Source: a bacterium
Lineage (GTDB): Bacteria > Electryoneota > Electryoneia > Electryoneales > Electryoneaceae
DNA: 64,000 nucleotides
Assembly (NCBI GenBank): GCA_963669175.1
Contig: OY769902.1
Location: 32,001-96,000 of the forward strand
Direction: 5' to 3'
A program made the translations under genes and the position numbers. Under the pieces are notes generated by a model, which worked only from the letters and a program-made list of their open reading frames with translations, searched no databases and was not told the origin of the DNA. The stretch's first letter is position 1. Every line of letters starts with the position of its first letter. Shown in pieces: positions 5,443 to 62,273 of the stretch.

Positions 5443-5541
5443 GGGTGGCCAGATCCGCAAGAACAAATGCTTCCACTGTAATTGAGTCAAAAAACAATGA
5501 TGAAACATCTATTCTTGATGAGGTAGCGAGCGCATCGGGAC
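5443..5541 (+). repeat. ~100-bp fixed-length element, copy A
   Basis: GGGTGGCCAGATCCGCAAG...GAGCGCATCGGGAC, 99 bp; same ends as copies at 14091, 16737 and 62174. Confidence 0.8.
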
Positions 5542-5665
5542 AAGTCTGGTTCTGGGCGCCTCAGTCAGAAAATTAAAGCTTTATCCCAGTCTTGATCATC
5601 TGTTATCCCAGCGGGATGTTTCACCGTCTACTGTACGCGGTGAAATGGCAGGAATACCAACAAAC

Positions 5666-5692
5666 AAACCCGGCCTCAAAGAGAGGTCGGGC
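5666..5692 (-). terminator. Probable terminator after rplS
   Basis: CCCGGCCTC-aaaga-GAGGTCGGG hairpin followed by TTTGTTTG on the minus strand. Confidence 0.55.
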
Positions 5693-5739
5693 ATAGATGT
5701 CTCAACAAATGCCGGCATAAGCATGCCGGTTGTGCAGGA

Positions 5740-6096
5740 CTATTGGCGCACTTTGTCCTTGATACGGGCAGCTTTACCGATCCGGTCACGGAGATAATAA
5801 ATCTTCGCGCGACGGACACGGCCTTCACGCAGCCGCTCGATCTTCGCAATGGACGGGGAATGCAGCGGGAACACACGCTCCACACCGATGCCGCCCGAAA
5901 CTTTACGGACTGTGAACGCCGCGTTGGAGGTCTTGCCACCCTTGCGGGAGATTACCGTACCACGGAAAATCTGGATACGTTCTTTGCCGCCTTCAACAAT
6001 GCGCACATGCACATCTACCGTATCGCCAGGGCCGAATTCGGGGATATCGTCTTTCAGTTCCCTGCGGTCGAGTTCTTGAATAATCTGGTCCGACAT
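5740..6096 (-). CDS. rplS: 50S ribosomal protein L19
   Basis: [29 protein letters not shown]...GVERVFP...[12 protein letters not shown]; canonical operon position. Confidence 0.98.
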
Positions 6097-6205
6097 GACT
6101 ACACCGTTATGTTTATGCTTTCGTAGAACGTGCCAATGTATGGAAACGAATACCGTTATGCCACTGTTTTCTCAAAACGAGAGCCTCGTCCGCTCTCTAT
6201 GTCCA

Positions 6206-6907
6206 TCACTTTTGTGCTTTTAACCATGATTCATACAAATCCGGTCGAAGCTCTTTCGTGCGCTCAAGTGCCTGTTGCTGCCGCCACTCATCAATTTTCG
6301 CGTGATGACCGCTGACTAATACATCCGGAACAGACCGCCCTTCCCATTCCTGGGGCTGGGTGTAGTGCGGATGATCCAGCAGGCCACGGGTGAAACTGTC
6401 GCCTTCCGCTGATTCAAAATCGTGCAGCACACCCGGAAGCAGTCGCACCACGGCATCCGCAATCACCACCGCAGCAGGTTCACCACCAGTCAGGATATAA
6501 TCCCCGATGCTGATCTCCATGTCCACCAGGGAATCAATCGCTCGCTGATCCAGCCCCTTGTAATGGCCGCAAAGGATCACCAGGCGTTCTTCACGTGCCA
6601 GGGTTTCGGCCAGATTTTGGTCCAGCTTGCGTCCCTGTGGGCTGGTATACAGCACCTTGGGTTCCGGCTGGGGGTGACGGTCCTTCAAAGAACGCAGTGC
6701 ATCAGCGACAGGCTGCGCTTTCAGCACCATGCCGGGACCACCGCCGAATGGCTTGTCGTCCACGGTTTTATGTTTATCCGTCGCAAAATCACGAAGGTTG
6801 ATCACTTCGATTTCCGCGACACCGAACCGCTGAGCTCGCGCCAGCATGGATTCGTTCAACATCATTCGTACACCATCGGGAAAGAGCGTCACGATCTCGA
6901 TCCGCAT
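6206..6907 (-). CDS. trmD: tRNA (guanine37-N1)-methyltransferase
   Basis: DDKPFGGGPGMVL, LCGHYKGLDQR, SIGDYILTGGE, LDHPHYT. Confidence 0.98.
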   Translation of the reverse strand: MRIEIVTLFPDGVRMMLNESMLARAQRFGVAEIEVINLRDFATDKHKTVDDKPFGGGPGMVLKAQPVADALRSLKDRHPQPEPKVLYTSPQGRKLDQNLAETLAREERLVILCGHYKGLDQRAIDSLVDMEISIGDYILTGGEPAAVVIADAVVRLLPGVLHDFESAEGDSFTRGLLDHPHYTQPQEWEGRSVPDVLVSGHHAKIDEWRQQQALERTKELRPDLYESWLKAQK

Positions 6908-6941
6908 AGTTCCCTCCGTAGTACGCTTCCCGGTTCGATGA

Positions 6942-7496
6942 TCAGGCCGAACCTTCTTCAGTCTCGTTGATCAGGCCGTCCGGAAGATCCACATTGATGA
7001 TACGGTTTTCGAGATCCATCTCAACGATGAATTCAATAACCGCGGGAATCAGCACTTCGCCAAACGGGCCGTCAACCTGCCAGATATCCTGAGCTGCCTG
7101 GTCAATTACCCCGGTAACGGTTCCCAGTTCGCCATGTGTCTCATCCACAATTTTGCATCCGACCAGGTCATCGATGTAATACATGTCATCGAACAACTCG
7201 AGTCGCTGGGAATCGTCAATGAACACCTCGCCGCCGACCAGTTTTTCCGCCAGTTCGCGAAGTGGCGCTTCCTTAAATCGAACGTAGACAGCCTGACCTT
7301 CAATCCGCATCCGCTTGAACGTGTAAAACTGCGGTTCCTGTCCGGTCATCTCAACCCAGACACCGTCCAGTTCTTCGAACCGGTAGACGTCCCAGGTCAT
7401 GGGGGCGATTTTCAGGTCGCCACGCAGCCCTCTTACCTTCGCGATCAGTCCGATCTGCAAGCGGCGTGAGGGAGGAGGACAGATTGGATCAGCCAT
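6942..7496 (-). CDS. rimM: Ribosome maturation factor RimM
   Basis: IGLIAKVRGLRGDLKI, YYIDDLVGC, EVLIPAV; lies between the KH gene and trmD. Confidence 0.95.
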   Translation of the reverse strand: MADPICPPPSRRLQIGLIAKVRGLRGDLKIAPMTWDVYRFEELDGVWVEMTGQEPQFYTFKRMRIEGQAVYVRFKEAPLRELAEKLVGGEVFIDDSQRLELFDDMYYIDDLVGCKIVDETHGELGTVTGVIDQAAQDIWQVDGPFGEVLIPAVIEFIVEMDLENRIINVDLPDGLINETEEGSA

Positions 7497-7752
7497 CTTT
7501 TTCCGATTTCACCAAGTCAAGGGTGACCTTTTTACCGCGCCGTGCAGCCGTTGCAATAGCAATCTGACGAATAGCCTGAATAATACGGCCATCCTTGCCG
7601 ATTACCCTGCCTTCGTCACCAGCAGCCACGTACAAGCTGATACGAATTTTATCACCGGTAACATCAGCGTCCGCACTGACTTCTTCAGGACGGTCCACCA
7701 GATGCTTGGCAATAAAATCGACCAGGTCAGCCAACAGCTCGGCGTCAACCAT
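7489..7752 (-). CDS. khpA: KH-domain RNA-binding protein (KhpA/YlqC family)
   Basis: LVDRPEEV...DEGRVIGKDGRIIQAIR (GxxG loop); follows rpsP. Confidence 0.9.
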   Translation of the reverse strand: MVDAELLADLVDFIAKHLVDRPEEVSADADVTGDKIRISLYVAAGDEGRVIGKDGRIIQAIRQIAIATAARRGKKVTLDLVKSEKDG

Positions 7753-7758
7753 TGCGGT

Positions 7759-8340
7759 TTACTCGGCCTTTTCTTCCTTCACTTCTTCTTCGGCCGCTTC
7801 TTCCGCTTTGGGCTCTTCTGCCGGCTTCTCTTCAGCCTTGGCTTCGGCCTTTTCCTCTACCTTGGCCTCTGCCTTTTCGGGAGCCTTTTCTTCTTTCTTC
7901 TCTTCCTTCTCTTCCTTCTTGGCTTCCTTCTTCGGCTTCGGCTTTTCGACAGGTTCGGGCGGCGTCACATCAAAGACCGGCTTTTCGACCGGCTTCGTAG
8001 CTTCTTTGCCCAGGGTGCCGTAGTGACGTGCACGCAGTTCTTCGACCGCTGCTTCGATCTTTTCCTGATCGTAGCCACGCTTGGTCATGTCCCAGCGAAG
8101 CATGATGCCTTCACGACGGAACAGGCTGCGGACGGTGTCGGACGGCTTGGCGCCATTGTTCAGCCACTTGACGGCGACATCGTGATCGATCTCGACTTTG
8201 GCCGGACGGCTAAGCGGATCATAGATACCGACGTTTTCCAGGTACTTGCCATCACGACGTTGGCGGCTGTCCAATGCGACGATGCGGTAGAACGGCCTCT
8301 TTTTACGACCCATGCGGGTCAGTCTCAGCTTTACTGCCAC
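7759..8340 (-). CDS. rpsP: 30S ribosomal protein S16 with long Lys/Glu/Ala-rich C-terminal tail
   Basis: MAVKLRLTRMGRKKRPFYRIVALDSR...RDGKYLENVGIYDP. Confidence 0.97.
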   Translation of the reverse strand: MAVKLRLTRMGRKKRPFYRIVALDSRQRRDGKYLENVGIYDPLSRPAKVEIDHDVAVKWLNNGAKPSDTVRSLFRREGIMLRWDMTKRGYDQEKIEAAVEELRARHYGTLGKEATKPVEKPVFDVTPPEPVEKPKPKKEAKKEEKEEKKEEKAPEKAEAKVEEKAEAKAEEKPAEEPKAEEAAEEEVKEEKAE

Positions 8341-8354
8341 GTTTCTTTACTCCT

Positions 8355-9683
8355 CTATCCGGGCAAGGGGCCGAATCCTGCAGGCATTCCTTTTTTACCC
8401 ATCTTGCCCATCCTCTTCATCATCTTCTGCATCTGGGTGAACTGGTTCAACAACCGGTTCACATCTTGTACTGTTGTGCCACTGCCAAGTGCAATCCGTT
8501 TGCGTCGGCTGCCGTTGATGATGTTCGGCTTGCGACGCTCTTCCGGTGTCATGGACAGGATAATCGCCTCAACGTGCTTCATCTCCTTGGGATCAACTTC
8601 GATGCCCTTGAGCTGCTTGCCCACGCCGGGGATCATTTTCAACAGGTTTTCCAGCGGGCCCATGTTGGCGATCTGCTGGAGCTGGCTCAAAAAATCTTCA
8701 AGGTCAAACTGCTGCTTCTTCAACTTCTCAGCAAGCTTGGCCGTCTTTTCAAAGTCCATCGATTCCTGGGCTTTTTCCACCAGGGAGACGACGTCTCCCA
8801 TGCCCAGGATACGATTTGCCATCCGGTCGGGGTGGAATTCCTCGATCTCGTCGAGTTTTTCACCCATACCCACGAACCGGATCGGCTCGCCGGTAACTTC
8901 ACGGATGCTGAGCGCCGCCCCACCACGAGCGTCGCCGTCCATCTTGGTCAGAATAATGCCCGAAATGCCGAGCTGCTCATTAAACGCCTTGGCGGAATTC
9001 ACCGCGTCCTGACCGGTCATGCCATCAGCAACGAACAGGACTTCCGACGGTTTGAGCTGTTCCTTGATCTCGGTCAGCTCATGCATAAGGGCTTCGTCAA
9101 CGTGCAAACGGCCGGCGGTGTCCACGATTAACGTGTCCAACCCTTCGACTGATGCTTTGCGCTTGGCTTCAAGTGCGACCGCCAGGGGATTGCTTGAACG
9201 GTCTACCACGACATTAACGCCGACCTGTTCGCCAACCCGTTCGAGCTGGTCGATCGCTGCCGGACGCTGCATATCACATGCGGCCAACAGGGGACGCATG
9301 CCACGCTTTTTAAGATATAGCGCTAATTTGCCCGAACTGGTCGTTTTTCCTGAACCCTGGAGCCCCACCATCAGGTATACCGTGGGCGGCTCCTTGCTTC
9401 TGCGTAGCTGGCTCCAGTTACGTCCCAGCAGTTCCGTGAGTTCGTCGTGCAGGATCTTGACCACCTGCTGCGCCGGGGTGACCGATTTGATCACCTCTTC
9501 GCCGACTGCACGTTCTTCGACACGCTTCAGGAAACTTTTCGCAACCTTGAAGTTGACGTCCGCTTCGAGCAGAATACGCCGAACCTCACGCAGGGCAGCC
9601 TGAACATCCTTCTCGGTCAGTTTGCCACGGCCGCGAAGCTTCTTGAAAAAGCCGTCAAGTTTATCTTGTAACTCACCAAACAC
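8355..9683 (-). CDS. ffh: Signal recognition particle protein Ffh
   Basis: GLQGSGKTT, DTAGR, TKMDGDARGG, M-domain SRRKRIALGSG; probable GTG start at 9683 (MFGELQDKL). Confidence 0.98.
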   Translation of the reverse strand: MFGELQDKLDGFFKKLRGRGKLTEKDVQAALREVRRILLEADVNFKVAKSFLKRVEERAVGEEVIKSVTPAQQVVKILHDELTELLGRNWSQLRRSKEPPTVYLMVGLQGSGKTTSSGKLALYLKKRGMRPLLAACDMQRPAAIDQLERVGEQVGVNVVVDRSSNPLAVALEAKRKASVEGLDTLIVDTAGRLHVDEALMHELTEIKEQLKPSEVLFVADGMTGQDAVNSAKAFNEQLGISGIILTKMDGDARGGAALSIREVTGEPIRFVGMGEKLDEIEEFHPDRMANRILGMGDVVSLVEKAQESMDFEKTAKLAEKLKKQQFDLEDFLSQLQQIANMGPLENLLKMIPGVGKQLKGIEVDPKEMKHVEAIILSMTPEERRKPNIINGSRRKRIALGSGTTVQDVNRLLNQFTQMQKMMKRMGKMGKKGMPAGFGPLPG

Positions 9684-9693
9684 GAGCAAAACC

Positions 9694-9812
9694 AATTAGG
9701 AATTAGCAATTAGGAATTAGGAATTAGGAATTTCCAAACCCCATAAAGCAATGTCAATCAACGAATTCCAATGTCTTTCAATTACCAATTACTAATTACT
9801 AATTTCTAATTA
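9694..9812. repeat. Two oppositely oriented heptamer arrays (AATTAGG-type and AATTACT-type)
   Basis: aattagg aattagc aattagg aattagg aattagg at 9694-9728; aattacc aattact aattact aatttct aatt at 9780-9811. Confidence 0.8.
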
Positions 9813-9813
9813 T

Positions 9814-10296
9814 TTAACAGTGTCGTTCTCGAATTGTTTCGATAATCTGTGTCGTGGACAGCCCGGGTACGAGCGGAATAATTTCCACCCGTCCACCGTG
9901 CGCTTCAACCGTATCGCGGCCAACGACAGTATCCGGTGTATAATCGCCACCTTTGACCAGCACGTCCGGGATAACCGTATCAATCAACCCGGCCGGAGTG
10001 TCTTCATCAAAGAACGCGACGGCATCAACCCATTTCAGGGCGAGCAGCATGGCGGCACGATTGTCCTGATCAATAATCGGACGTTTCGGTCCCTTGATCC
10101 TGCGGACACTGGCATCGGAATTCAGGCCGATAATCAGCGCATCCCCGAAAGAACGAGCCTTCCGGATCGATTCCAAATGCCCGGCATGGAGAATGTCAAA
10201 GACTCCATTCGTAAACGCCAGAGTTTCTCCCTGCCGCCTCAGTTCTTCCCGCCAGCGTGCTGCTTCTTCCCAGGAGACCAGGGGCATGAATCGCAT
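9814..10296 (-). CDS. rfaE2: D-glycero-beta-D-manno-heptose 1-phosphate adenylyltransferase (HldE domain II)
   Basis: FTNGVFDILHAGH, GLNSDASVRRIKG, PDVLVKGGDY, GLSTT. Confidence 0.95.
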   Translation of the reverse strand: MRFMPLVSWEEAARWREELRRQGETLAFTNGVFDILHAGHLESIRKARSFGDALIIGLNSDASVRRIKGPKRPIIDQDNRAAMLLALKWVDAVAFFDEDTPAGLIDTVIPDVLVKGGDYTPDTVVGRDTVEAHGGRVEIIPLVPGLSTTQIIETIRERHC

Positions 10297-10313
10297 CCTT
10301 TCAAGCCTGTTCC

Positions 10314-10493
10314 GTCAGGTCTTGCGCAACACACACCGACTTGACAAGGTCCAAAACTTCAAGCGTGTGACCTGGCGGCACTCTTCAGATGGTTCCAAGT
10401 GTCAGGTCACACAGCGACAGAATATCAAGTGCAACTTAACCGTAAAACCAAAATTGAATTCAATTCATTTGCTTTGTCGCTGCAAGACCTGAC
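10314..10493. repeat. Nested inverted-repeat (REP-like) element, CAGGTC family
   Basis: Outer perfect 12-bp IR GTCAGGTCTTGC/GCAAGACCTGAC; inner IR TGTGACCTG/CAGGTCACA; same motifs at 16.4 kb and 40.7-40.9 kb. Confidence 0.7.
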
Positions 10494-10616
10494 ACAACAA
10501 TGCGAAATGTATTCTTGCTTAATACTACCCGTAAAATCGACGACCATCGATTGCCCTTACAGGAAGGAGGCCCCAGTGGAGCCTCCCGAACATGCTGTTC
10601 TTTCAATACTTGGGTG

Positions 10617-10690
10617 TGGGCGATACTGGAGTCGAACCAGTGACCTCTGGTATGTGAGACCAGCGCTCTAACCAACTGAGCTAATCGCCC
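10617..10690 (-). tRNA. tRNA-Val (anticodon CAC), CCA not encoded
   Basis: GGGCGATTAGCTCAGTTGGTTAGAGCG CTGGT-CTCACAT-ACCAG AGGTC ACTGGTTCGACTCCAGT ATCGCCC A: full cloverleaf with TTCGA T-loop. Confidence 0.97.
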
Positions 10691-10751
10691 TTCGTCACAT
10701 TATACCCGAGACGTATCAAGCTTTAGAGTATAGGCGACGCGAACTGAAAAA

Positions 10752-11732: not shown

Positions 11733-11952
11733 ACCCCTGCCTCCCTCTGGTTCTCGGGATGATTGCCCCAGTTAGGGCGAATACTGCCTGTTACCTGCGA
11801 TGAGGATGCAATGTACTGAAAAATGAAGGGGCAGACCAACCTTGACTGCTCGAAGGGAACCGGGTAACTGCTTCAGATAGCGAGCTTCTCTTGGCTCCGC
11901 TGAAGGAAATCGCTACCTTCTTTCTAAACATCCACCAAATCCAGGGGGGATA

Positions 11953-13128: not shown

Positions 13129-13138
13129 AGGCATAAAC

Positions 13139-13855
13139 ATGTTAAAACGCTTAACCATTCTTCTATTAGTAAGCTTCATTCTGGCGCCTGTATCACATAC
13201 TTTTGCCCGGGAAGATACGCCCTGGTATCGTACCATCGGTATCAGTCTGCAACGTGATGGCATGTTCGCAACCACCTACCATACCACCGGAGATATCTGG
13301 TGGGGTTATTATGGCCCGTCCTACTTCAACGAAGGCAATTCCATTCACCGGTATGGCTACAGCTTCTATGCCCAGGCGGATGTGTATAAAACGTACTATG
13401 TGAAACTTGGCTTCCGTCTGTTGAACCAGCCCGACGATGTGCTCAAAGCGCACTATACCGAGTATGGTGTCAATACGGATGGCGAATCTGTAGAAATTCA
13501 CTACGCATCCGATATCAGCGATATGGCGGACCTGGCTGTCATTGATATCTTTGGCGGATACCGGTATCCCATGCACAAGCTGCTGAATGTCAATTTCGGT
13601 ATTGGCGTAAGCTGGTTCAGAAGTAACAACCAGGGAAAAGCCCTGTTCGGCGGGTTTGCCGACCTGGAATTCAAACCGATTCCCATGGTCGGTTTCAGCG
13701 GCGGTATCAAGTTCGCGCAAAAGGTACGGTTCAGCGAAACTCAGGAGGTCGTCGAGGAGACCACGCCATTTCGTCGAGCGACAAACACGATTCACCTTGA
13801 GTGGGACTCCTGGTGTTATTACTTTGGCATGACGGTATATCCGGGGTTGTGGTAG
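13139..13855 (+). CDS. Probable outer-membrane beta-barrel protein
   Basis: Signal peptide ending TFA; alternating aromatic/Gly strands; C-terminal YYFGMTVYPGLW. Confidence 0.65.
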   Translation: MLKRLTILLLVSFILAPVSHTFAREDTPWYRTIGISLQRDGMFATTYHTTGDIWWGYYGPSYFNEGNSIHRYGYSFYAQADVYKTYYVKLGFRLLNQPDDVLKAHYTEYGVNTDGESVEIHYASDISDMADLAVIDIFGGYRYPMHKLLNVNFGIGVSWFRSNNQGKALFGGFADLEFKPIPMVGFSGGIKFAQKVRFSETQEVVEETTPFRRATNTIHLEWDSWCYYFGMTVYPGLW

Positions 13856-13958
13856 GAAGTGAAAAAAGTAGGCAGTGAAAAAAGTGAAAAAAGAATCAGA
13901 TAATTGGGAAGTTATTGGGTGGTCCCCGGAGTTGGAAAGTTGGAAAGTTAATCCATGT

Positions 13959-14058
13959 GCATGACCCGATATGCCTGATATGCAGCATGATTCTCGTGAA
14001 ATGCTGACAACACTTGTGGGGCTTCGCCCTGTGATGAAGATGATGAGCAAGTCGGGAT
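13959..14058 (+). repeat. ~100-bp fixed-length element, diverged copy E
   Basis: GACCCGATATGC...GAGCAAGTCGGGAT; 100-bp span; stem changes are compensatory relative to copies A-D. Confidence 0.55.
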
Positions 14059-14090
14059 TATCTGAAAAGTTTGAAAGTTGAAAAGTTAAT

Positions 14091-14191
14091 GGGTGGCCCG
14101 ATCCGCAAGTGATGCAGTTGTGTGTTCCTGCTGCTGCTGCAATAGGGTGAAAGACCTGCAATCTGTTGTGTAACCTTGAGCGCATCGGGAC
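14091..14191 (+). repeat. ~100-bp fixed-length element, copy B
   Basis: GGGTGGCCCGATCCGCAAGTGA...GAGCGCATCGGGAC, 101 bp. Confidence 0.85.
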
Positions 14192-14321
14192 TATGCAGGG
14201 TTGGAAGGTTGAAAAGTTCTAAAGTTACTAATTTGTTAAAATAACGACCTCATTTATCAAAGATGTGTGGCCCGGGTGCTGGCACCCGGGAGTTGATTGT
14301 GAACAACAACTTGTAGATTTT

Positions 14322-16384: not shown

Positions 16385-16546
16385 TGGTTCCTCACAAGAA
16401 TTTGCGCATCCGGGCAAAGTTGTGGCAGGTCTTGACGCGACATTCCGTTTTCGGCTTTCGCAATGTATTTCTGAATGCACATGATACTGAAACCACCTCT
16501 CGTCCTGTTATTGTCGCGTTGTGACCTGCCACCGGTATCAGCACTC
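16385..16546 (+). repeat. ~160-bp dispersed repeat; inverted copy at ~40800-40962
   Basis: Contains ATGATACTGAAACCACCTCTCGTCCTGTTATTGTCGCGTTGTGACCTGCCACCGGTATCAGCACTC, whose exact reverse complement lies at ~40800-40865. Confidence 0.9.
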
Positions 16547-16736
16547 CAGTGGACCATTGCACCTGCTATGATGTTGTCGGCAATACGAGCATGTCATACA
16601 GAACACCCTGTAAATCAGGCCACCCAGGCATTCCGCAGTTCCCGACGGCAAGTTTACATATCATTCAGCATATCCCGGAATCGTAATGCAGTTCAATTAT
16701 ATATCTTAATTCTTCATTCTTAATTCACAAGAGGTT

Positions 16737-16837
16737 GGGTGACCCGATCCGCAGGTGATGCAACTTCCGTTTTCGATTCAGCAGGAAAACTCTCATTACA
16801 TCTCTTATTCAATCGATACTCATGAGCGCATCGGGAC
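16737..16837 (+). repeat. ~100-bp fixed-length element, copy C, followed by an inverted right end of the E variant at 16865-16881
   Basis: GGGTGACCCGATCCGCAGGTGA...GAGCGCATCGGGAC, 101 bp; ATCCCGACTTGCTCATC is the reverse complement of 14042-14058. Confidence 0.85.
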
Positions 16838-17004
16838 AGGGCTTCACACAAAAGAGAAAACGCAATCCCGACTTGCTCATCCTCACTCGGCACGGTTGCT
16901 ATTGATTGCAAGCGGTGATAGTTTATCAGGATGAGTGTGCTGTAAACGTAGAGGACTATTTCCGTTAATTTGATTCATTTCTGAAAGATACGCATGGAGG
17001 CTAC

Positions 17005-18741
17005 ATGCGGCTTCATTTTCGTGCTAACCTGACCTGCCTGCCAGGGATAGTCCTGTTGTTCACTGTATTGTTTTCAACCGTCCCGGTATTTGCCGATTGG
17101 CCGGACACTGGCTTGCAAGTCACTCCACCGGGTTGTACAGGTCGTTACAAAGTCGTCCCGGATGGTGTGGGCGGCGCCTATATCGGCTGGTATGTCGAAG
17201 TCTCGCCCGATATGATGGGCTCTCTGGTACAACACATCGACGCCGATGGGAACATCCTGTGGGATCCACAGGGAATCTCAGCCGTAGACCCGGATTCTGC
17301 CCACAGAACAATCTTCTATGACCTGCTGGCAGATGGTGAGGGTAACCTGCTGGTACTCTCCATAGCGCGATTGCTTGATCAGGTGGGAAGTTTTTTTACA
17401 GTTCAGAAACTGTCACCATCGGGTGAACGGTTGTGGGGCGCTACGGGACGTAGTGTTACTGGAGATTCGTCATCTACAACAGATGCAGGCTTCTCAGATC
17501 CCATGGTACTGGATGAGAACGGCAATATCATTGTTATTTACATGGCGATGGATGATGACGAGCTCTTGTGCTTTTCAAGCAAGCTGGATACGAATGGAGA
17601 TGTAGTCTGGACCACGCTGCTCGGTGATCATTTTACCTCTCATGGACAGTGTGTTCCTGATGGTGAGGGGGGCGTCATTTATGCCAGGCGTGGAGTCAAT
17701 GCAGACTATGATCATGCGATCCTTGGGGCGCGTGTGGACTCCGAAGGCAACAGCGTTTGGTGGCCCAGTAACTATTATCTCCTGAACCGTCAACCGGACA
17801 ATAATGTATATCCCACACAACACTTCAAGCTGATTCCCAGGCCGTCTGGCGGGGCGCTGATGGTCGCACAGTCTTTCAGTGCATCCAATATCCCGCCTTG
17901 TGAATTTCTGTTAGTCGTCATTGAGCCGGATGGAGACTTTCCACTTGGTCCAAGAGGAGCTACGATATTTCGCTGTGACGACATGGTTGATTTTGATATG
18001 GTAATGCATGATGATATCCTGTATGTATCCCTTTACAACAGGGACAGCCCACCGGAACGTGGGCATTATGTCTTCCGAACGGATGAAAACGGAACACTCC
18101 TGGATCCGGGGGGGTACGTAGAATTCGATACAACTTCACTGCGTGGTAGTGAAGTAAGAATTGAACCAACAACAGACCATCTCCTGATCGCCTATTCGCG
18201 AAAGGTATCTCCCACCAACTCCACGCGTTACCCCCATTGCCAGGCATTCACGGCTGAAGGGAGTTTTCCCTGGGGTGCTGTTGGGCATCTGATTGCGGAT
18301 ACGACACTGCCCTATGACGGTTACCGCCTGCAAACCTGCAATGTGGGTGGCGATACGGTTTTTGTTGCCTGGATGCCTAATGAGACCAGTGTTGTGACTG
18401 TAATGCCCGTTTATCCAGACGGCAGCACACCCTGGTATGACAACCCGGTGCAGGAAAGGTCAACCGCGCCGAATCCCCAGAGTTTCCGGATAGATTCGGT
18501 TTATCCCCAACCCTTCAACCACCAGGTCCATATCTCGTTCTTCCTACCTGAACCGGACCGGGTGACCTTTACCATATACAACCTGAACGGTCAGGTTGTG
18601 CAGAACATGACACACCATTTCGAGCAAGCCGGACAGCAGGTGATGAACCTTGATTTGAAAACAACAGCAGCCGGTGTCTTCTATATAAAAGTAATCAGCG
18701 GAGATCAAAGCTGCGTCTCTAAGCTGGTGCATATAAAATAG
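17005..18741 (+). CDS. Secreted beta-propeller-like repeat protein with T9SS-type C-terminal domain
   Basis: Signal peptide; repeats PDGVGGAYIGW...QHIDADGNILW; C-terminal VYPQPFN...IYNLNGQVV...AGVFYIKV. Confidence 0.8.
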   Translation: MRLHFRANLTCLPGIVLLFTVLFSTVPVFADWPDTGLQVTPPGCTGRYKVVPDGVGGAYIGWYVEVSPDMMGSLVQHIDADGNILWDPQGISAVDPDSAHRTIFYDLLADGEGNLLVLSIARLLDQVGSFFTVQKLSPSGERLWGATGRSVTGDSSSTTDAGFSDPMVLDENGNIIVIYMAMDDDELLCFSSKLDTNGDVVWTTLLGDHFTSHGQCVPDGEGGVIYARRGVNADYDHAILGARVDSEGNSVWWPSNYYLLNRQPDNNVYPTQHFKLIPRPSGGALMVAQSFSASNIPPCEFLLVVIEPDGDFPLGPRGATIFRCDDMVDFDMVMHDDILYVSLYNRDSPPERGHYVFRTDENGTLLDPGGYVEFDTTSLRGSEVRIEPTTDHLLIAYSRKVSPTNSTRYPHCQAFTAEGSFPWGAVGHLIADTTLPYDGYRLQTCNVGGDTVFVAWMPNETSVVTVMPVYPDGSTPWYDNPVQERSTAPNPQSFRIDSVYPQPFNHQVHISFFLPEPDRVTFTIYNLNGQVVQNMTHHFEQAGQQVMNLDLKTTAAGVFYIKVISGDQSCVSKLVHIK

Positions 18742-50014: not shown

Positions 50015-50020
50015 ATATTT

Positions 50021-53603: not shown

Positions 53604-53655
53604 TTGATTTTGTCTGATTTGTATGGATTTGGCTATCAATGATTTGCATGTTACA

Positions 53656-53962: not shown

Positions 53963-54030
53963 CCGGCAGTTTTATGGCGAAAAAAACCGAGTACTGCCAA
54001 GGTTCTAAAAATCTTGAATCCCCTTCGTTT

Positions 54031-54329: not shown

Positions 54330-57300
54330 ATGAATCGTATTTCGGTCAAACCCGCCTGGGTGGCATTCTTTCTGCTGGCGCTGCTTGCACTGTCCATACC
54401 GGGTTGTGAACAAGGGAACAGCGTTTTCATCAAGGAAGCGCAACCGCAGAATCCAGTCCCACGCACCAGCAATATCACCATCCTGTTTTCCACGGATATT
54501 GTTGGCAACGAACGTGTTGGCGAATCTTTTGACAGCGCCGACGTGACCATTGATCCCCCGTTCCCCGGCTGGTATCGCTGGATTGACACTCGTTCCCTGC
54601 AGTTTATGCCTACGGAACCTCTGCCGCCTTCCAGCCGGTTTACCTTTACCGTCAATTCCGGTGTAATTGAGGTTCCGGGCATCACCATGACCGGAAAAAA
54701 ATCCTTTGATATCTACACAACTCCCTTCTCCGTGCTGGCTGTTCACCATATTATGACCCCCTCATCAACCAATCCGAAGAATGCTATCCTTACTGTCCAG
54801 CTCACCTTCACCGACCCGGTCGAACCTGACGAAGTGCTGAACAATGTTCGTATCTACAGTGAGAACTCCAACCGTGAGATCGGTTTCACCCTGTTGAACC
54901 CTTCAGGCGCAGCGAGCGAATTCACACTTGTTACGGAAGACCTGGTCCGTCCGGAAAAAGAAAACAGCTTTGTTCGGGTTGAAGTTGACGCCGCCATCAA
55001 ATGCCTTAACGGAACCCTGCCGTTGGGGGAAACGGAAGCTCGCAAAGTCTCGCTGGAGAAGCTGGATGAGCTGAAAGTGAACAGCATTTCTCCATCCCAG
55101 CATGACAAGGCATTCAGCATTTCCATACGCTTATCCATTCCAATCGATCCGGTTGATGCCAGCAAATACATTGAACTGCAGCCGGAAATGGATTATGAGG
55201 TTGTGTCAGGCTATTCTGACCAGTTGCTGATTACCGGTGATTTCAAGCAGGAACAGCAGGTCCGGGTTATCCTGAAACCGGGATTGACCGCGTTGAACGG
55301 AAAACTCCTGGAAAAGGAATTCAGCCAGACAATCACCTTCCCCAAGCTGCAACCCTCGGTCTCCTTTGCATCACCCGGGAGATACCTGTCCCACAGTGGG
55401 ATGCAGAATGTGGCGCTGGAAGTGGTGAATATGGACAGCATACGTGTCCAGGTAGCCAAGATTTACACCAATAACCTGGTGCATTTCCTTCACAACGGTG
55501 GATTGGGCGGTCTTTACGGGAATACCGGCAATTATGGCACAACCGTTGTAAACGAATTGATTCCCATCTCCTCGCCTGACGGGTATCCGCTTGAGGTGCC
55601 GACACCCGTTACAGTCAACTTCGAAAACTTGCTGCGTGATAACCCGTCCGGTTTGTTCGTGATGACACTTCGCGACAATAACCGTTACTGGCGCAGCGAC
55701 AGCCGTTGCATCATGATCACTGACATCGGTATGATCGCCAAACGTGCGGAAGACGAGTTGCATGTCTGGGCTTTGTCCACCAGCACACTTCGCCCCTTGA
55801 ACGGTGTCCGGATTGAACTGCTCAGCGACAATAACCAGTCCATGGGTAAAGCGGTCACAGACGGTGAAGGTCATGCTATCATTCGCGGATTGAATGGACT
55901 GGAAGAGGATTTCAACCCGTTTGTCATTGCCGCGCAGCATGGTCAGGACTTTTCATTCCTTGATTTCGGAAGCAGTTACATCTCGACGTCAAACTTTGAC
56001 GTTGGTGGCGATAGTTACCATAGCAAACCGTTTGACGCCTGGTTGTACGGTGATCGTGATGTGTACCGTCCCGGCGAGACCGCGCATATCGCCTGTATCG
56101 TTCGTTCCACCAGCGGTCTGGTCCCCTCCAACTTCCCGGTTCGGATGAAGATAACCGACCCGGCCGGAAGAACTGTATTCGAGGAAAAGGGACGGTTGGG
56201 GCTGGAAAGTATGGATGAGTTCACCTTCGACATCCCTGCGTTTGCCCGTACCGGACACTATTACGCTCAACTCTACGCTACCGGTGACAACACTATCGGA
56301 GACTACAGTTTCCAGGTGGAAGAGTTCATGCCGGACCGGATCAAGGTGGGCCTTGAAACCAACGGAGACCAATTTGCACCCGGGGATACGATCAGAGTCG
56401 ATGTCACTGGTACCATGCTGTTCGGTCCACCCGCCTCAGGCAGACGTAGCGAAGCGGTCCTTACCATGACACCGACCTCGTTCCAGTCCGGAAATTGGTC
56501 CGACTTCACATTCGGGAACAGTGAACGCGAATTCTCCCGTCTGGAAGAAAACCTCGGTGAACAGAAACTGGACGACAATGGTATAGCGGAATTTGCCTAT
56601 GTCATCGGTGAAGGCAATCGTCCCCCGGCAGCGTTAAAGGGAAATATCCGCGCTACGGTATATGAGATGGGCGGACGTGCGGTGAATAATTATCAAAACG
56701 TAACGATTTACCCCTATTCCCGATACATAGGTGTCAAACGCCAGAACAGCGCCTACGCTGTACCCAATAAAGCGGAAAACATCCAGTTTGTTGTGATCGA
56801 TCCTGAAGGAAATCCGGTCAACACCGATAAGCTTGAAATTACCTTCTTCAAGTACAACTGGCGGACCAGCCTGGTTCGGGATCGCAACGGTCATTATTAC
56901 CGTTCCAACCGTGTACCGCAAATCATCGGACGAGAAACTGCGTCGTTTTCCGGCACTCAAGCGTCGGTGGAATTCACTCCCCCGACCTATGGCAGTTACG
57001 GCGTCCAGATCGAAGATCCGGAATCCGGCGCTTCTTCTTTGATCATGTTCTATGCCAGCGGCTGGGGATACAGTCCCTGGGCCATGCAGAACCCGGATCA
57101 GATAGAACTGGAACTGGATCGTGAGGCATACAAACCCGGACAATCGGCCAATGTTCTGGTGAAAGCGCCGTTCGGTGGAAAACTGCTGCTAACCGTGGAA
57201 CGGGATAACATCCTCTATTCCCGTTTGATCGCGATGGAGGGCAATACCGCAGAGATCAGCATTCCGGTTCGGAACAGCTTTGAACCGAATGCCTATGTCT

Positions 57301-59783
57301 GCGCCACATTGGTGCGTGCGGGACAGGATGTTGATCCCGAAGCGCCCATGCGCGCCATCGGGATTGTTCCGCTTATGATTGACATGAGCAGTCACCGCAT
57401 GGGATTGACCATTTCCGCCCCGAAAGAGATGCGTCCAAAACAACCGATGGAAGTCACCCTGACCGCACGCGGTGCGTCCGGGACAGCGGCGGTCACCCTC
57501 GCCGCTGTCGATGAAGGCATCCTGCAACTGACCAACTATCAGACGCCTGACCCGTACAGCTATTACTTCGGGAAACGTCAGCTAAATGTATCCACCTATG
57601 ACCTGTTCCAGAAACTGATGCCGGAAACCGAAGCGGCCAAGTTGCATTCCAGCCCCGGCGGCGGCAAAAGCGCGGCAGATATGGGGCATGTTTCCGCGTT
57701 GTCGCAGCACCGGGTCAAACCGGTATCGTTATGGTCAGGCATTGTGACCATGAACAGTGGCCGTGCGAAAATCAAGTTTGATATTCCCGAGTTCAACGGA
57801 CGCCTGCGTCTGATGGCGGTGGCGGTCGATGGGAACAACTATGACGCGGCCGAAAGCTACGTGCAGGTGCGCGATCCTGTTGTCCTGACCCCGACCTTCC
57901 CGCGTTTCGTTGCCGGTGGCGATAAGTTCCGCGTTCCGGTGAATGTATTCAACGGCACCGGGAAAACCGCATCCATCGTTGTCAAGCTGGATATTGAAGG
58001 CCCGTTGACGATTGACGGTGCGAATAGTCAGACAGTGGAAGTGCAGCCGGAAAAAGAGGGACAGGTTTTCTTCTCGCTGGAAGCGAAACATGCGCATGAA
58101 CTTGCCACGGCTACATTGACTGCCACCGGTGGCGGAGTTTCGGTTTCTGTGAAAACCACACTTCCGGTTCGTCCGCCAACCCAACCGCAAAGCTTCAGCG
58201 GGGCGAGTTCCTTCGAGGCAGGTAATAAAGTCACCATCAATCTGCCCGGCGATTTCGTAGAAGGGACAGATTCATACGCATTGCATGTTATGTCCACACC
58301 CGGCCTGGAATACTCGGCCAGCCTTGAATACCTGCTGAAATACCCATACGGATGTCTCGAACAGACCGCATCCTGTGCGTTCCCCTTGCTGTACTATGAT
58401 GATCTGGCCAAGCAGGTTTACCCGGACCAGTTCCACGATTCCGCGCCTGAATACTATGTCCAGGAAGCCATTACAAAGATCATCTCGTTGCAGAATTCGA
58501 ATGGCTCGTTCAGCTACTGGCCCGGTGATGATATGGAAACCCGCTACCCCTGGGCATCGATCTATGCTGCCCATTTCCTCGTGGAAGCAAAAGAGATGGG
58601 CTATGATGTTACTGATTCCGTTTTGAAACAGGCTCGCAGGTTCCTGAAAAATGTGGTTGACGGGAAATACGACTTTGAAACATCCTGGTTTTCACACTGG
58701 GGAAATACCCTGTCTTCCTCTTACCAGGAACGATACAACATGCGAATCCGTACTTACGCCATGTTTGTCCTGGCCATGATGGATAAACCCGAACGTGGCG
58801 CGATGAATGTGATCTTTGACCGGAAAAAGGACAAGCTTACCCCGGAATCACGCGCACTGCTGGCCGGAGCCTATGCCATGAGCGGTGATATGGCCACCGC
58901 GCGTGAACTCCTGCCCCAGAAAGCCTATCCGGAATCCGATCAAAACAGGCAGAACGGCTACAGCTTTTACAGCCAGACCCGTTCCGATGCGATCAACCTG
59001 CATGTGCTGGCCCACTTCCAGCCGGACAGCCCGGTTATTCCTGTCCTGGTCGAACGCTTAAAGAAACAATCTCACAGTGGCAGGTGGTACACAACTCAGG
59101 AAAACGCATGGGCGCTGCTTGCCCTGGGACGCCTGTATCATGGAATCGGCGATTCCGACTATACTGGACGAGTACTGGTGGATGGCAAAGAAACCGCCAC
59201 CTTCGATTCTGAACCATTTTCCATTTCGGCAAAGGATTGGGCAAACAAAAAGATAGAACTTAGCACCGAAGGGAAAGGCAGGTGTTTCTATTACTGGGAA
59301 GCACGCGGACTGCCTGAGAAGCCACAATACCTGGATGTCAACGAAGGTATGAAAGTCACACGAAATTACTACTCGTATGACGGTCAATCGCTGGCCCTTG
59401 ATGAGATCAAACAGGGTGACCTGGTTGTGGTGGAAATCATTGTCTCCAACACCAGCAGCCGGTATTGCCTGTTCAACGTGATCGTCGATGATATGCTTCC
59501 GGCTGGATTGGAAGTTGAGAATCCACGCCTGGAATCACGTCAGCAACTGACCTGGATCAATCGTTCCGGTATCCTGAACCCCACATCCATGGACATGCGG
59601 GATGATCGTGTCCTGCTGTTCCTTGACCTGAATTCCAGAAATGACCGCCGGTACTATTATTCTGCGCGTGCTGTAACGACAGGACGCTTTGCGCTGCCCC
59701 CGATCCAGGCGGAAACCATGTATGATCCTACGATCCGCAGTATCAGTTCTTCCGGGGTCATGGAGGTCAAACCCAGGAAATGA
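54330..59783 (+). CDS. Bacterial alpha-2-macroglobulin family lipoprotein
   Basis: Lipobox SIPGC; DRDVYRPGET; VEEFMPDR; AAVDEGIL; thioester YPYGCLEQ; YTTQENAW; DMLPAGLE; adjacent to pbpC. Confidence 0.96.
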   Translation: MNRISVKPAWVAFFLLALLALSIPGCEQGNSVFIKEAQPQNPVPRTSNITILFSTDIVGNERVGESFDSADVTIDPPFPGWYRWIDTRSLQFMPTEPLPPSSRFTFTVNSGVIEVPGITMTGKKSFDIYTTPFSVLAVHHIMTPSSTNPKNAILTVQLTFTDPVEPDEVLNNVRIYSENSNREIGFTLLNPSGAASEFTLVTEDLVRPEKENSFVRVEVDAAIKCLNGTLPLGETEARKVSLEKLDELKVNSISPSQHDKAFSISIRLSIPIDPVDASKYIELQPEMDYEVVSGYSDQLLITGDFKQEQQVRVILKPGLTALNGKLLEKEFSQTITFPKLQPSVSFASPGRYLSHSGMQNVALEVVNMDSIRVQVAKIYTNNLVHFLHNGGLGGLYGNTGNYGTTVVNELIPISSPDGYPLEVPTPVTVNFENLLRDNPSGLFVMTLRDNNRYWRSDSRCIMITDIGMIAKRAEDELHVWALSTSTLRPLNGVRIELLSDNNQSMGKAVTDGEGHAIIRGLNGLEEDFNPFVIAAQHGQDFSFLDFGSSYISTSNFDVGGDSYHSKPFDAWLYGDRDVYRPGETAHIACIVRSTSGLVPSNFPVRMKITDPAGRTVFEEKGRLGLESMDEFTFDIPAFARTGHYYAQLYATGDNTIGDYSFQVEEFMPDRIKVGLETNGDQFAPGDTIRVDVTGTMLFGPPASGRRSEAVLTMTPTSFQSGNWSDFTFGNSEREFSRLEENLGEQKLDDNGIAEFAYVIGEGNRPPAALKGNIRATVYEMGGRAVNNYQNVTIYPYSRYIGVKRQNSAYAVPNKAENIQFVVIDPEGNPVNTDKLEITFFKYNWRTSLVRDRNGHYYRSNRVPQIIGRETASFSGTQASVEFTPPTYGSYGVQIEDPESGASSLIMFYASGWGYSPWAMQNPDQIELELDREAYKPGQSANVLVKAPFGGKLLLTVERDNILYSRLIAMEGNTAEISIPVRNSFEPNAYVCATLVRAGQDVDPEAPMRAIGIVPLMIDMSSHRMGLTISAPKEMRPKQPMEVTLTARGASGTAAVTLAAVDEGILQLTNYQTPDPYSYYFGKRQLNVSTYDLFQKLMPETEAAKLHSSPGGGKSAADMGHVSALSQHRVKPVSLWSGIVTMNSGRAKIKFDIPEFNGRLRLMAVAVDGNNYDAAESYVQVRDPVVLTPTFPRFVAGGDKFRVPVNVFNGTGKTASIVVKLDIEGPLTIDGANSQTVEVQPEKEGQVFFSLEAKHAHELATATLTATGGGVSVSVKTTLPVRPPTQPQSFSGASSFEAGNKVTINLPGDFVEGTDSYALHVMSTPGLEYSASLEYLLKYPYGCLEQTASCAFPLLYYDDLAKQVYPDQFHDSAPEYYVQEAITKIISLQNSNGSFSYWPGDDMETRYPWASIYAAHFLVEAKEMGYDVTDSVLKQARRFLKNVVDGKYDFETSWFSHWGNTLSSSYQERYNMRIRTYAMFVLAMMDKPERGAMNVIFDRKKDKLTPESRALLAGAYAMSGDMATARELLPQKAYPESDQNRQNGYSFYSQTRSDAINLHVLAHFQPDSPVIPVLVERLKKQSHSGRWYTTQENAWALLALGRLYHGIGDSDYTGRVLVDGKETATFDSEPFSISAKDWANKKIELSTEGKGRCFYYWEARGLPEKPQYLDVNEGMKVTRNYYSYDGQSLALDEIKQGDLVVVEIIVSNTSSRYCLFNVIVDDMLPAGLEVENPRLESRQQLTWINRSGILNPTSMDMRDDRVLLFLDLNSRNDRRYYYSARAVTTGRFALPPIQAETMYDPTIRSISSSGVMEVKPRK

Positions 59784-62143
59784 CAGGTACGGAGGCATCG
59801 AGGAATCTTCTTCAGCACGTGAGAAACTGGCTCAGCCATCACCCGCGAATACGGAATACACTTTTCGTATTGGTGGGGATGGCTGTGCTATTTGTGTTGT
59901 TGCTGCTTGTGGTTCCCCTGCCACCGGACAGTATGAATCCTCCGGCTTCAACGGTTGTCTTTGACCATGAAGGCAAGTTGCTGCGGGTGTACCTGTCTTC
60001 CGAGGATGCCTACCTGGTCCCGGCAGCGCTGGATGACATTTCTCCCCATCTACAGGCCGCGTTTCTTACCTATGAAGACCGTTATTTTTACGCCCATCCG
60101 GGGCTGAACCCGGTCGCCATCACACGCGCTGCATGGATGAACCTGCGTGCCGGAAAGGTGCTGTCAGGCGGATCTACCATCACCCAGCAGTTGGCGCGAA
60201 TGATTGACCCACGTCCTCGTACTCTACCGGTCAAACTGCTTGAAGCCTTTCGCGCACTGCAACTCGAATTGCGGTATTCAAAGAAGGAAATCTTTACTGC
60301 CTATCTGAACCGAGTCCCCTTCGGCGGAAATGTGATCGGTGTGGAAGCGGCGTCGCAGATATACTTCGGCAAACCGTCTCGCGAACTTGGTCCGGGTGAA
60401 GCGGCGCTACTCGCAGCGATCCCCAAGTCCCCGGCGAACCTGCGTCCGGATCGTTACCCGGAAGCCGCCCGGAAACGCCGAGACGAAGTACTTCGTCGTA
60501 TGCTCGAAAACGATGTGATCACATCGGACCAGTTTGATCGCGCGATTGCGGAATCAGCGGCGCATGGCTGGAAACCGTTCCCACTCTACGCACCTCATGT
60601 TTGTGATGAGCTCGCTGCCGCTTCAGGTCGCACGGGAAGAAAATACACAACCACAATCGACCTGAAGATTCAGGAAACCGCGCGGCGCCTGCTGGAACGT
60701 CATGTCAACCAGCTACGCGGGTTCAACATCTCCAACGGCGCTTTGGTGATACTGGAAAATGAAACCGGAGCAGTTCGAGCGCTGGTGGGGTCGGCGGATT
60801 ATTTTGATGAGAAAAATGGCGGCCAGGTGAACGGCGCTCTGGCAGAACGATCCCCCGGCTCCACTCTTAAACCGTTTGTCTATGCGCTGGGCATTGATGA
60901 TGGCCTGCTGACACCTTCCACCCTGCTGGAAGACATTCCGGTGAGCTACAGCGGGTATGCCCCGGTGAACTATGACGAAACCTTCCAGGGAATGATCACC
61001 GCACAATATGCGCTTACCCATTCGCTCAATGTCCCGGCCGTCAATGTGTTGCACGACGTTGGCCTGACACGCTTGATCGGTTTCCTCCGACAAGGCGGTA
61101 TCCATACCCTGGAAAAGGGGCCGGAACATTTCGGCCTGTCGCTGATCCTGGGCGGTGTCGGGGTACGTTTGCTGGAACTGACCAACCTGTACGCCATGCT
61201 GGCGCGTCAGGGTGAGTTTATTTCCTATCGCCTGCTGGAATCCCAGCCGGTATTGCAATCCAAACGATTGCTGACTGAAGGTTCCGCCTTTATCATCACC
61301 GATATGCTGACCGAGGTGCGTCGTCCCGATTTCCCGTCCACATGGGAATACACCGCCAACCTGCCCAAGATCGCCTGGAAGACCGGGACATCATACGGCA
61401 ACCGTGATGCCTGGAGCATCGGCTATACCCCGCGCTACACCATTGGGGTATGGATCGGGAATTTCTCCGGTGTGGGCGCTCCGGCGCTGGTGGGCGCGGA
61501 TGCCGCCGGACCGTTGCTCTTCGACCTGTTCACCGCACTTGAAGCGGGAAAAGGTGAATGGTATCTGCGGCCGGTGGAGGTGGATGAACGTGAGGTCTGC
61601 GCCCTGTCCGGCATGCTGCCCGGGCCGGGCTGTACCGAAATAAAACGCGAGCTGTATCATGTGGATTATTCACTTCGTGAAGAATGTACCTTCCACCAGG
61701 TCTATGAGATCGATGATGCAACCGGCTATCGTTTGTGCCCTTCCTGCCGTGTCGGTAAGTACTATCAAGAGAAAGTGTTCGTCACCTGGCCTTCCAAAAT
61801 TACGGCGTGGCGAAGGTCTGTAGGACTTCCCCTTGAGACCATCCCGCAACATGATCCCAAATGCAGCCGTATCGCAGGAGAAAACGCCCCGTCTATCCGT
61901 TCCCCGGAAGAAGGGATCACGTACATTATTCGCAGGTTTGTGCCCCTTGAAGATCAACAGATTCCGCTTGAGGCAGCCTTTGGCAGTGATGTGAAAACGG
62001 TGTACTGGTTCGTGGACCGGGAGTTAATCTTTGAAGGAAAACCGGATCAGCTTGTTTTCTGGCCCCCGGAGCGTGGAAAACACACCGTTACATGCATGGA
62101 TGACGAGGGACGCGAAGCCAGCCGTGAGATTGTGGTGGAGTAA
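59780..62143 (+). CDS. pbpC: Penicillin-binding protein 1C
   Basis: Transglycosylase EDRYF, GGSTITQQ; transpeptidase STLK, SLN, KTGT; C-terminal PBP1C domain; overlaps the A2M stop. Confidence 0.96.
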   Translation: MTGTEASRNLLQHVRNWLSHHPRIRNTLFVLVGMAVLFVLLLLVVPLPPDSMNPPASTVVFDHEGKLLRVYLSSEDAYLVPAALDDISPHLQAAFLTYEDRYFYAHPGLNPVAITRAAWMNLRAGKVLSGGSTITQQLARMIDPRPRTLPVKLLEAFRALQLELRYSKKEIFTAYLNRVPFGGNVIGVEAASQIYFGKPSRELGPGEAALLAAIPKSPANLRPDRYPEAARKRRDEVLRRMLENDVITSDQFDRAIAESAAHGWKPFPLYAPHVCDELAAASGRTGRKYTTTIDLKIQETARRLLERHVNQLRGFNISNGALVILENETGAVRALVGSADYFDEKNGGQVNGALAERSPGSTLKPFVYALGIDDGLLTPSTLLEDIPVSYSGYAPVNYDETFQGMITAQYALTHSLNVPAVNVLHDVGLTRLIGFLRQGGIHTLEKGPEHFGLSLILGGVGVRLLELTNLYAMLARQGEFISYRLLESQPVLQSKRLLTEGSAFIITDMLTEVRRPDFPSTWEYTANLPKIAWKTGTSYGNRDAWSIGYTPRYTIGVWIGNFSGVGAPALVGADAAGPLLFDLFTALEAGKGEWYLRPVEVDEREVCALSGMLPGPGCTEIKRELYHVDYSLREECTFHQVYEIDDATGYRLCPSCRVGKYYQEKVFVTWPSKITAWRRSVGLPLETIPQHDPKCSRIAGENAPSIRSPEEGITYIIRRFVPLEDQQIPLEAAFGSDVKTVYWFVDRELIFEGKPDQLVFWPPERGKHTVTCMDDEGREASREIVVE

Positions 62144-62173
62144 TCTTGTGTTATGTTCCATTACATCCAGGAC

Positions 62174-62273
62174 GGGTTGCCCGATCCGCAAGTGATTGAT
62201 TTTCCATAGCTGATGCCGCCAGAATACTCCTACACAAGCAAGACCAATCGCTTCACTCCGAGCGCATCGGGAC
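62174..62273 (+). repeat. ~100-bp fixed-length element, copy D
   Basis: GGGTTGCCCGATCCGCAAGTGA...GAGCGCATCGGGAC, 100 bp. Confidence 0.85.

Follow-up and report, generated by a model that had tools for sequence, protein, structure and literature searches.

A dispersed REP-type hairpin repeat with a giant loop of fixed length in the genome of an uncultured bacterium

The stretch of bacterial DNA analysed here (the window, 64,000 nucleotides; G000:C1:32001-96000) contains five copies of a dispersed repeat of about 100 bases. Our analysis reveals that this repeat is a hairpin DNA of the repetitive extragenic palindrome (REP) type, in which a short closing stem surrounds a loop of about 72 nt and of fixed length. 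The repeat thus belongs to a known kind, that of the REPs, the bacterial interspersed mosaic elements (BIMEs) and the REPINs (hairpin-forming REP doublets), and the giant loop of fixed length is what is new. An initial annotation of the window had offered three explanations for the repeat, namely a non-autonomous hairpin element of an HUH-type enzyme such as a REP-associated tyrosine transposase (RAYT), an integron recombination site, or an undescribed non-coding RNA. The first of these is supported by the flanking of a RAYT gene by copies, by a 5′ tag shared with the REPs beside RAYT relatives in other genomes, by covariation of the stem and by a narrow distribution of lengths, whereas the results presented below speak against the other two. 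All genome-wide searches were made on the genome that holds the window, a single bacterial contig of 5.447 Mb that is 95.9% complete.

Copy number and size classes

A profile built from four of the window copies and iterated once (family F1) gave 134 matches genome-wide, of which the 116 full-length ones were aligned. The matches are divided between the strands (68 on the plus and 66 on the minus strand), and the single orientation reported initially therefore holds inside the window but not in the genome as a whole. The remaining window copy, a variant, seeded a sister family (F2) with 39 full-length matches. After merging, the genome contains at least 156 units on both strands, which form 111 clusters, namely 73 single units, 33 doublets, three triplets and two quadruplets. 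A looser pattern adds 57 candidates, among which are a third family (F3, GGGTGG-CCCGATTTTGCC...GGCAAAGTCGGG) and, as judged informally, numerous F2-like units whose interiors differ widely.

The length of the unit is held within narrow limits. The stem-to-stem distance is 90–94 nt in 105 of the 106 anchored copies genome-wide, so that the fixed length claimed for the window copies extends to the family and a broad distribution of spacers is not seen. Tagged hairpins were also counted independently of any alignment, as occurrences of TGGCCCGA that have, further downstream, a TCGGG arm with at least 8 of 10 positions paired. TGGCCCGA occurs 405 times, and a pairing TCGGG arm is present in 276 cases. 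These 276 tagged hairpins fall into two size classes, with 108 at 20–29 nt and 129 at 90–99 nt (107 of the latter at 91–93 nt), and six lie at 30–89 nt. The reversed genome, used as a control, yielded 14 partners and left both the 20–29 and the 90–99 class empty. Within the long class, the length and a central motif are kept across families whose interiors are barely alignable.

Architecture of the unit

The 116-copy alignment and its boundary profile show the layout of the unit as Y-GGGTGG, CCCGA plus five nucleotides, the interior, five nucleotides plus TCGGG, and finally A-Y. The two ends form a closing stem of 10 bp around an interior of about 72 nt, and GGGTGG is an unpaired tag that directly abuts the stem, its positions carrying 1.2–2.0 bits in 106 copies. 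In the boundary profile of the same 106 copies, no inverted partner of the 5′ tag is present at the 3′ end. The borders of the unit are confirmed by a contig from another sequencing run, which matches window positions 16736–16836 only and is unlike the window on both sides.

The ends pair as had been proposed from the window copies. Among 41 representative copies, 89.8% of the stem cells are paired and five of the ten pairs change on both sides, including changes from G-C to U-A and from G-C to A-U; the compensatory changes are therefore real. The observed level of covariation was reached in none of 500 shuffles, and sliding the register of the two arms lowers the paired fraction to 17–41%. 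Stem position 7 behaves differently, being unpaired in 25 of the 41 copies, U-A in 11, G-C in four and G-U in one, and the stem is made of 6 + 3 pairs around this variable position. Because position 7 pairs in the remaining copies, the C-C mismatch, initially described as conserved, is a trait of one subfamily.

The interiors had been called unrelated. They do diverge across the families, but the alignment also reveals conserved motifs (AAGTGATG, TTCC and GAATACTC) and graded subfamilies. The motif AAGTGATG follows the 5′ stem, an invariant GA is located just before the 3′ stem, and in 61 of 88 copies a further motif, RTAC, is placed at a distance of exactly 44 nt from the 5′ stem. A profile of the interior alone matched, outside the elements, partial copies only. 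Analysis with RNAalifold revealed no conserved fold of the interior, as RNA or as DNA, in all copies or in the subfamilies. The possibility of a coding unit was rejected, the GWPDPQV frame being open in 26 of 67 copies and the other frames in 4–30 of 67.

Such an architecture could also belong to small structured RNAs or cis-acting RNA elements with a protein partner, for which the DNA repeat would be no more than the gene, built either on a junction of the kink-turn (K-turn) or box C/D type (GUGAUG...UGA) or on a stem like that of Y RNAs. The covariation of the stem and the fixed length would fit an RNA, as would GTGATG after the 5′ stem together with the GA before the 3′ stem, and the consensus stem is stronger as RNA (−7.5 to −9 kcal/mol) than as DNA. 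The 5′ end of the element also resembles the 5′ end of Y RNAs. However, no Rfam match was found in the window at the gathering score, or between 13900 and 16900 at E values up to 10, and neither a TROVE/Ro gene nor a gene of the L7Ae family (PF01248) was found in the genome at its present completeness. A Y RNA was accordingly rejected for want of both a Ro/TROVE partner and an Rfam match. Box C/D and other K-turn RNAs were rejected on the missing PF01248 match and on the geometry of the junction: the canonical bulge has 3 nt, and the F1 K-turn is not canonical because four bases, not three, stand between the stem and GA. The interior is without a conserved fold, no copy folds better than its shuffles, and copies occur on either strand regardless of the direction of the neighbouring genes. 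Taken with these observations, an RNA identity for the repeat appears very improbable.

Linkage to a RAYT gene

A RAYT gene located outside the window, at G000:C1:4081900-4082460, is flanked by copies of the repeat. Its 187-aa open reading frame (ORF) scores 92 bits on the NCBIfam model NF047646 (REP-associated tyrosine transposase; cut-off 80) and matches the solved structure of E. coli TnpA-REP (PDB 4er8). Both the HUH motif (HVH) and the catalytic tyrosine (EYIHSNPV) are intact. The gene is flanked by 4.5 copies in all: one flank holds two full copies and a 28-nt inverted piece, and the opposite flank holds an inverted doublet. These copies are near-consensus, and the nearest ones lie 32 and 66 nt away. 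There are 10 Y1_Tnp matches in the genome, and this RAYT gene is the only one with copies within 3 kb, the other nine having none. The RAYT model itself gives seven matches in the genome, four of them above the cut-off. A search for copies beside a RAYT or TnpA gene had been suggested in the initial annotation, and this locus answers it.

The association of tag and RAYT is seen beyond this locus. Relatives of the 187-aa RAYT at 40–48% identity are common in the bacterial family and phylum, and are also present in public metagenome-assembled genomes of other phyla. At four of six inspected loci of such relatives, GGGTGG followed by a short hairpin brackets the gene. Of 66 loci, 17 have GGGTGG in the 300 nt upstream of the gene and 16 have CCACCC in the 300 nt downstream of it, against a background of 8% per 300-nt stretch, which amounts to an approximately threefold enrichment in outward orientation. 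The hairpins of the nine loci tagged on both sides have loops of about 2–23 nt (read by eye).

A paralogous RAYT of the same genome (2242310-2242849, at 2.242 Mb), which is 48% identical to the 187-aa RAYT, is bracketed by a classical short REP, G-y-k-TGG followed by CCCGAC-TGCTTGCT-GTCGGG. This short REP has 97 exact cores in the genome, and beside the paralogous gene, on one flank, it is repeated six times in tandem. A short form of the F2 stem, TGG-CCCGAYTTGC-NN-GCAAGTCGGG, occurs four times and twice in two genomes of the same family and is absent (0 occurrences) from the genome studied here.

Copies and other repeats in the window

All five window copies are intergenic. The four F1 copies lie on the plus strand at 5443..5541, 14091..14191, 16737..16837 and 62174..62273, with the ends initially described for them. 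The bipartite pattern CCGATCCGC-N60-90-GCGCATCGGGAC occurs three times in the window and in none of 100 shuffles, and the exact 14-mer of the 3′ end, GAGCGCATCGGGAC, is present four times in the window and always on the plus strand; the copies are thus not due to chance. The copy at 5443..5541 (72.7 bits) is found downstream of rplS, with a hypothetical gene on its other side and both genes on the minus strand; its 5′ stem reads CCAGAT, by which one stem pair is lost. The copy at 14091..14191 (81.3 bits) is found upstream of exbB. The one at 16737..16837 (97.9 bits) has a TonB-like gene on one side and a Por-secretion-tail gene on the other, and the one at 62174..62273 (85.5 bits) separates a class-A penicillin-binding protein gene on the plus strand from a convergent histidine kinase gene on the minus strand.

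The fifth copy does lie at 13959..14058 on the plus strand as annotated, in tandem with the F1 copy at 14091 and 32 nt upstream of it, but it is a member of F2. It carries the tag GCATGA and the stem CCCGATATGC/GCAAGTCGGG. Since the F2 stem is normally perfect (CCCGAyTTGC/GCAAGTCGGG), the A-A mismatch of this copy is a private mutation. The inverted half copy reported at 16865..16881 is indeed an inverted end piece; it is a minus-strand remnant of the 3′ end of an F2-type copy (GATGAGCAAGTCGGGAT), and the matching 5′ end is absent after it. Short tandem octamers of the GTTGGAAA/GTTGAAAA type are located directly beside the F2 and F1 copies, at 13925-13950, 14068-14090 and 14197-14228.

Other repeats are also present, in the window and outside it. 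One of the 97 cores of the short sister REP lies on the minus strand at 62316..62340 (tag TTGG, hairpin CCCGAC-TGCTTGCT-GTCGGG), and the ATG-started ORF 62310-62708 looks spurious because of this short REP. Several contigs of the same-genus genome match the 62316-62340 stretch at 90–100%. Another inverted-end repeat, GGCAGGTCTTGACGCGACA ... TGTCGCGTTGTGACCTGCC, occupies 16386-16543, where the summed contig depth is very high; a 14-mer inside it occurs 79 times in the genome and on both sides of a RAYT-like gene at 5.087 Mb. At 13857-13904, just past the stop of ORF 13139-13855, a stretch of about 45 nt shows raised contig depth and has more than 40 matches of 79–90% identity in the same-genus genome. 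This stretch is a further small repeat family that is common to the genus and does not resemble the 100-nt units. A GC-rich hairpin, GGCCCCGTCCGGCTTGTCCGGCGGGGT, stands beside the RAYT locus, at G000:C1:4081489-4081524; it contains a 14-mer present 34 times in the genome and represents another small palindrome family or a terminator type. Nearly every Y1/RAYT-like gene of this genome is flanked by an abundant 14-mer of its own (26–108 occurrences; ten genes), and many separate families of REPs, terminal inverted repeats (TIRs) or IS200 ends therefore coexist here.

Placement in the genome

The units avoid genes, and nearly all are intergenic. Only 65 of the 156 copies fall within an open frame of 100 codons or more, whereas 82.5% of random segments do, and only five of 156 lie in frames longer than 1 kb. 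The copies account for many of the odd intergenic hairpins and spurious small ORFs of the genome. On a crude ORF map, 46 of 116 copies are located between convergent genes and 12 of 116 between divergent ones, and no orientation preference relative to the neighbouring genes is seen (12/13, 23/23 and 18/15). Four F2 copies of one subfamily, at G000:C1:573826, 2127529, 4048607 and 4768298, lie near the 5′ ends of frames of 3.4–3.7 kb. Either the true starts of these four frames lie beyond the copies, in the downstream direction, or a duplication of paralogous genes included the unit.

Adjacent units form 45 pairs, with 21 in tail-to-tail, 21 in tandem and three in head-to-head arrangement. Seventeen inverted tail-to-tail doublets have gaps of 23–34 nt and a near-constant overall span of 234–252 nt, with spacers that are unrelated to each other.

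No target-site duplication of 3–8 bp was found at any offset in 106 copies, which is expected for a Y1 HUH enzyme. This observation bears on another conceivable identity of the repeat, that of a miniature inverted-repeat transposable element (MITE) mobilised by a DDE transposase that acts on 10-bp terminal inverted repeats, or of an attC-like integron site. The inverted-repeat ends would suit either, as would the central mismatch of one subfamily. However, a MITE is not easily reconciled with the missing duplication, nor with a 5′ tag that is without an inverted partner at the 3′ end. The attC core sites R″ and R′ are RYYYAAC and GTTRRRY. By inspection the ends of the present units, GGGTGGCCCGA and TCGGGAY, are without such core sites, an integrase gene not having been searched for, and the copies are mostly scattered singly (73 of 111 clusters) and do not form cassette arrays. 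An integron site, one of the identities first suggested, is therefore not supported, and both forms of this explanation appear extremely unlikely to us.

Distribution across genomes

A covariance model of the unit finds 93–126 matches in the genome studied here and none in 15 genomes of the same family (one of them of the same genus) or in 25 further genomes of the phylum. The tag-and-stem pattern occurs 67 times here and 0–1 times in each of 78 other genomes, which is the level of the reversed control. In the same-genus genome, no close ortholog of the RAYT was found (best match E = 3e-8). A metagenome relative that is about 85% identical across the locus carries a unit at the same site (window 16704-17050). 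Because the other genomes searched gave no match and this relative shares the unit, the family is young or lineage-restricted, yet older than that split. A search of 185,579 species genomes with an exact 18-mer returned 17 single matches in unrelated taxa, where about 17 are expected by chance according to our own estimate. A full-text literature search with three 12–13-mers of the element returned, as judged by the listing, unrelated papers only.

The distribution is relevant to the question of whether the units, though derived from REPs, are now kept mainly for a function in the host and no longer by transposition, the 72-nt interior serving as a protein platform or as a stabiliser of transcript ends. 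The model for such a function is provided by the IHF-binding BIMEs of E. coli. The interior motifs at fixed distances, the length held despite divergence in sequence, the enrichment between convergent genes (46/116) and the copy kept at the same site in the metagenome relative are all consistent with it. However, none of 40 related genomes, the same-genus one included, contains a match to the model of the unit, the tag-and-stem pattern does not rise above chance in 78, and an intact RAYT is flanked by near-consensus copies. With the related genomes free of matches, a young expansion fits better than an old host function, and we regard maintenance mainly for the host as improbable, although somewhat less so than an RNA identity.

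Comparison with known repeats

The passages of the REP literature drawn on here give the tag as GTAG or GTGG, located 0–2 nt from the stem (PMC6006769), with GTGG as a recorded variant of GTAG (PMC3733652; PMC6006769), and REP families tagged GT[AG]G are described in Di Nocera 2013 and Quentin 2018. In the same sources, stems are 6–13 or 7–20 bp long, loops have 2–5 nt or form part of bulged long hairpins, and the total is 20–40 bp (PMC3733652, PMC6006769). The present units resemble the REP/BIME and RAYT system of E. coli (TnpA-REP, 4er8) in their high copy number, in lying outside genes, in an unpaired tag of the GTGG type immediately 5′ of a compensating stem, and in copies that bracket a single RAYT gene. 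They further resemble BIMEs in regularly spaced inverted doublets of alternating orientation and in the lack of target duplication. Unlike REPs, they carry fixed sequence motifs in the interior, and their host is an uncultured lineage, whose closest named relative by L19 is a metagenome-assembled genome recorded as Candidatus Electryonea clarkiae (77% identity). Judged by what defines a REP, the units agree in copies, placement, tag, RAYT flanking and clusters and depart in the size of the hairpin, for which a basal stem of at least 7 pairs with a loop of 2–5 nt, or else a bulged long hairpin, is prescribed; that they are cut and moved by a RAYT, the remaining criterion, is what we infer.

REPINs of P. 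fluorescens SBW25 are described by Bertels and Rainey 2011 (PMC3116915) as conserved ends with a spacer, the middle being less conserved, and among the accounts cited here the REPIN is the closest description in print. The likeness extends to units of about 100 nt, conserved ends, a 5′ single-stranded tail and linkage to a RAYT. However, a REPIN consists of two full inverted REPs that pair throughout, whereas the present unit has one tag and a 10-bp stem. The REPIN was rejected as an identity for the single unit on the missing inverted tag at the 3′ end, the missing conserved pairing of the interior and the fold z-scores given below. REPIN-like inverted doublets do exist among these units, with a span of about 245 nt.

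The short REPs of this genome and of two same-family genomes share with the long units the core of the tag and the outer stem CCCGA/TCGGG, and the short REP of the two same-family genomes has a stem identical to that of F2. Each short REP family is tied to a RAYT clade 40–48% identical to the 187-aa RAYT. The short and long forms differ in the loop (2–8 nt versus about 72), and intermediates are almost absent (6 of 276).

Rickettsia palindromic elements (RPEs) are roughly 100–150 bp long and are often inserted in frame inside genes, and we know of no dedicated RAYT for them. They are similar to the present units in having palindromic ends and a short terminal tag, which in RPEs is CGTC (PMC3733652). 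In contrast to RPEs, at most five of the 156 units lie in frames longer than 1 kb, and no frame is held open.

Proposed propagation by the RAYT

Our analysis makes it likely that the RAYT, acting on single-stranded DNA, copies units that it recognises by their tag and by the foot of their stem, and that it tolerates the loop. In such a scheme, the two ends of a unit would pair in single-stranded DNA, such as the lagging-strand template. The Y1 HUH enzyme would read the stem foot and the 5′ tag, cut and rejoin, and the unit would be copied or moved without target duplication, the copies settling mainly downstream of genes. The tag and the outer 5 bp of the stem, which are most conserved, would be the recognition part, and the inner stem would be free to change as long as pairing is retained. 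The interior sequence appears to drift while its length and a few motifs are kept. As to origin, the units have the appearance of the ordinary short REPs found in this bacterial family, but with the loop enlarged.

Several observations weigh against this proposal. The loop of about 72 nt and the unit of about 100 nt are far from the 2–5 nt and 20–40 bp of published REPs, and neither F2 nor F3 adjoins a RAYT of its own. With replication sides assigned by GC skew (origin at about 0.77 Mb, terminus at about 3.42 Mb), 65 copies face 51, so that the strand bias relative to replication direction that was to be checked is not significant. An empty site was not found at three of three loci in the same-genus genome G001, where the flanking genes lie on other contigs or have other neighbours, and no trustworthy excision joint was found in contigs of other sequencing runs. 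Folded one by one, as RNA or as DNA, the copies do no better than their shuffles (z-scores of −1.3 to +0.8 for the DNA folds), and the consensus fold as DNA is weak (−1.4 to −2.4 kcal/mol). As the DNA stem alone is marginally stable, a protein or partial pairing of the interior may be needed. Moreover, recognition of stem and tag alone does not explain the fixed length and the interior motifs.

The interior drifts but keeps its length, and length therefore appears to be a condition for copying by the RAYT. It is possible, although we hold it only tentatively, that selection acts on loop length itself. The long form would then perhaps be copied only if a second contact is made, either through a site for a protein or for the RAYT in the middle of the loop or through a single-stranded loop of measured length. 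If this holds, the units would represent a 'macro-loop' class of REPs with a function of its own for the interior module.

Implications

To our knowledge, work on REP and REPIN systems has been confined almost entirely to Proteobacteria, and such systems are found by rules that require a tight hairpin. The loop described here is about 15 times longer than the published rules allow, yet it is held within 1–2 nt, and REP-finding rules with loops of 2–5 nt cannot see macro-loop units. If the RAYT does handle these units, the tag and the stem foot are all that its substrate requires, and automated surveys would undercount REPs. The short and long classes, together with two paralogous RAYTs in one genome, would in that case serve as a natural experiment on the factors that determine REP size.

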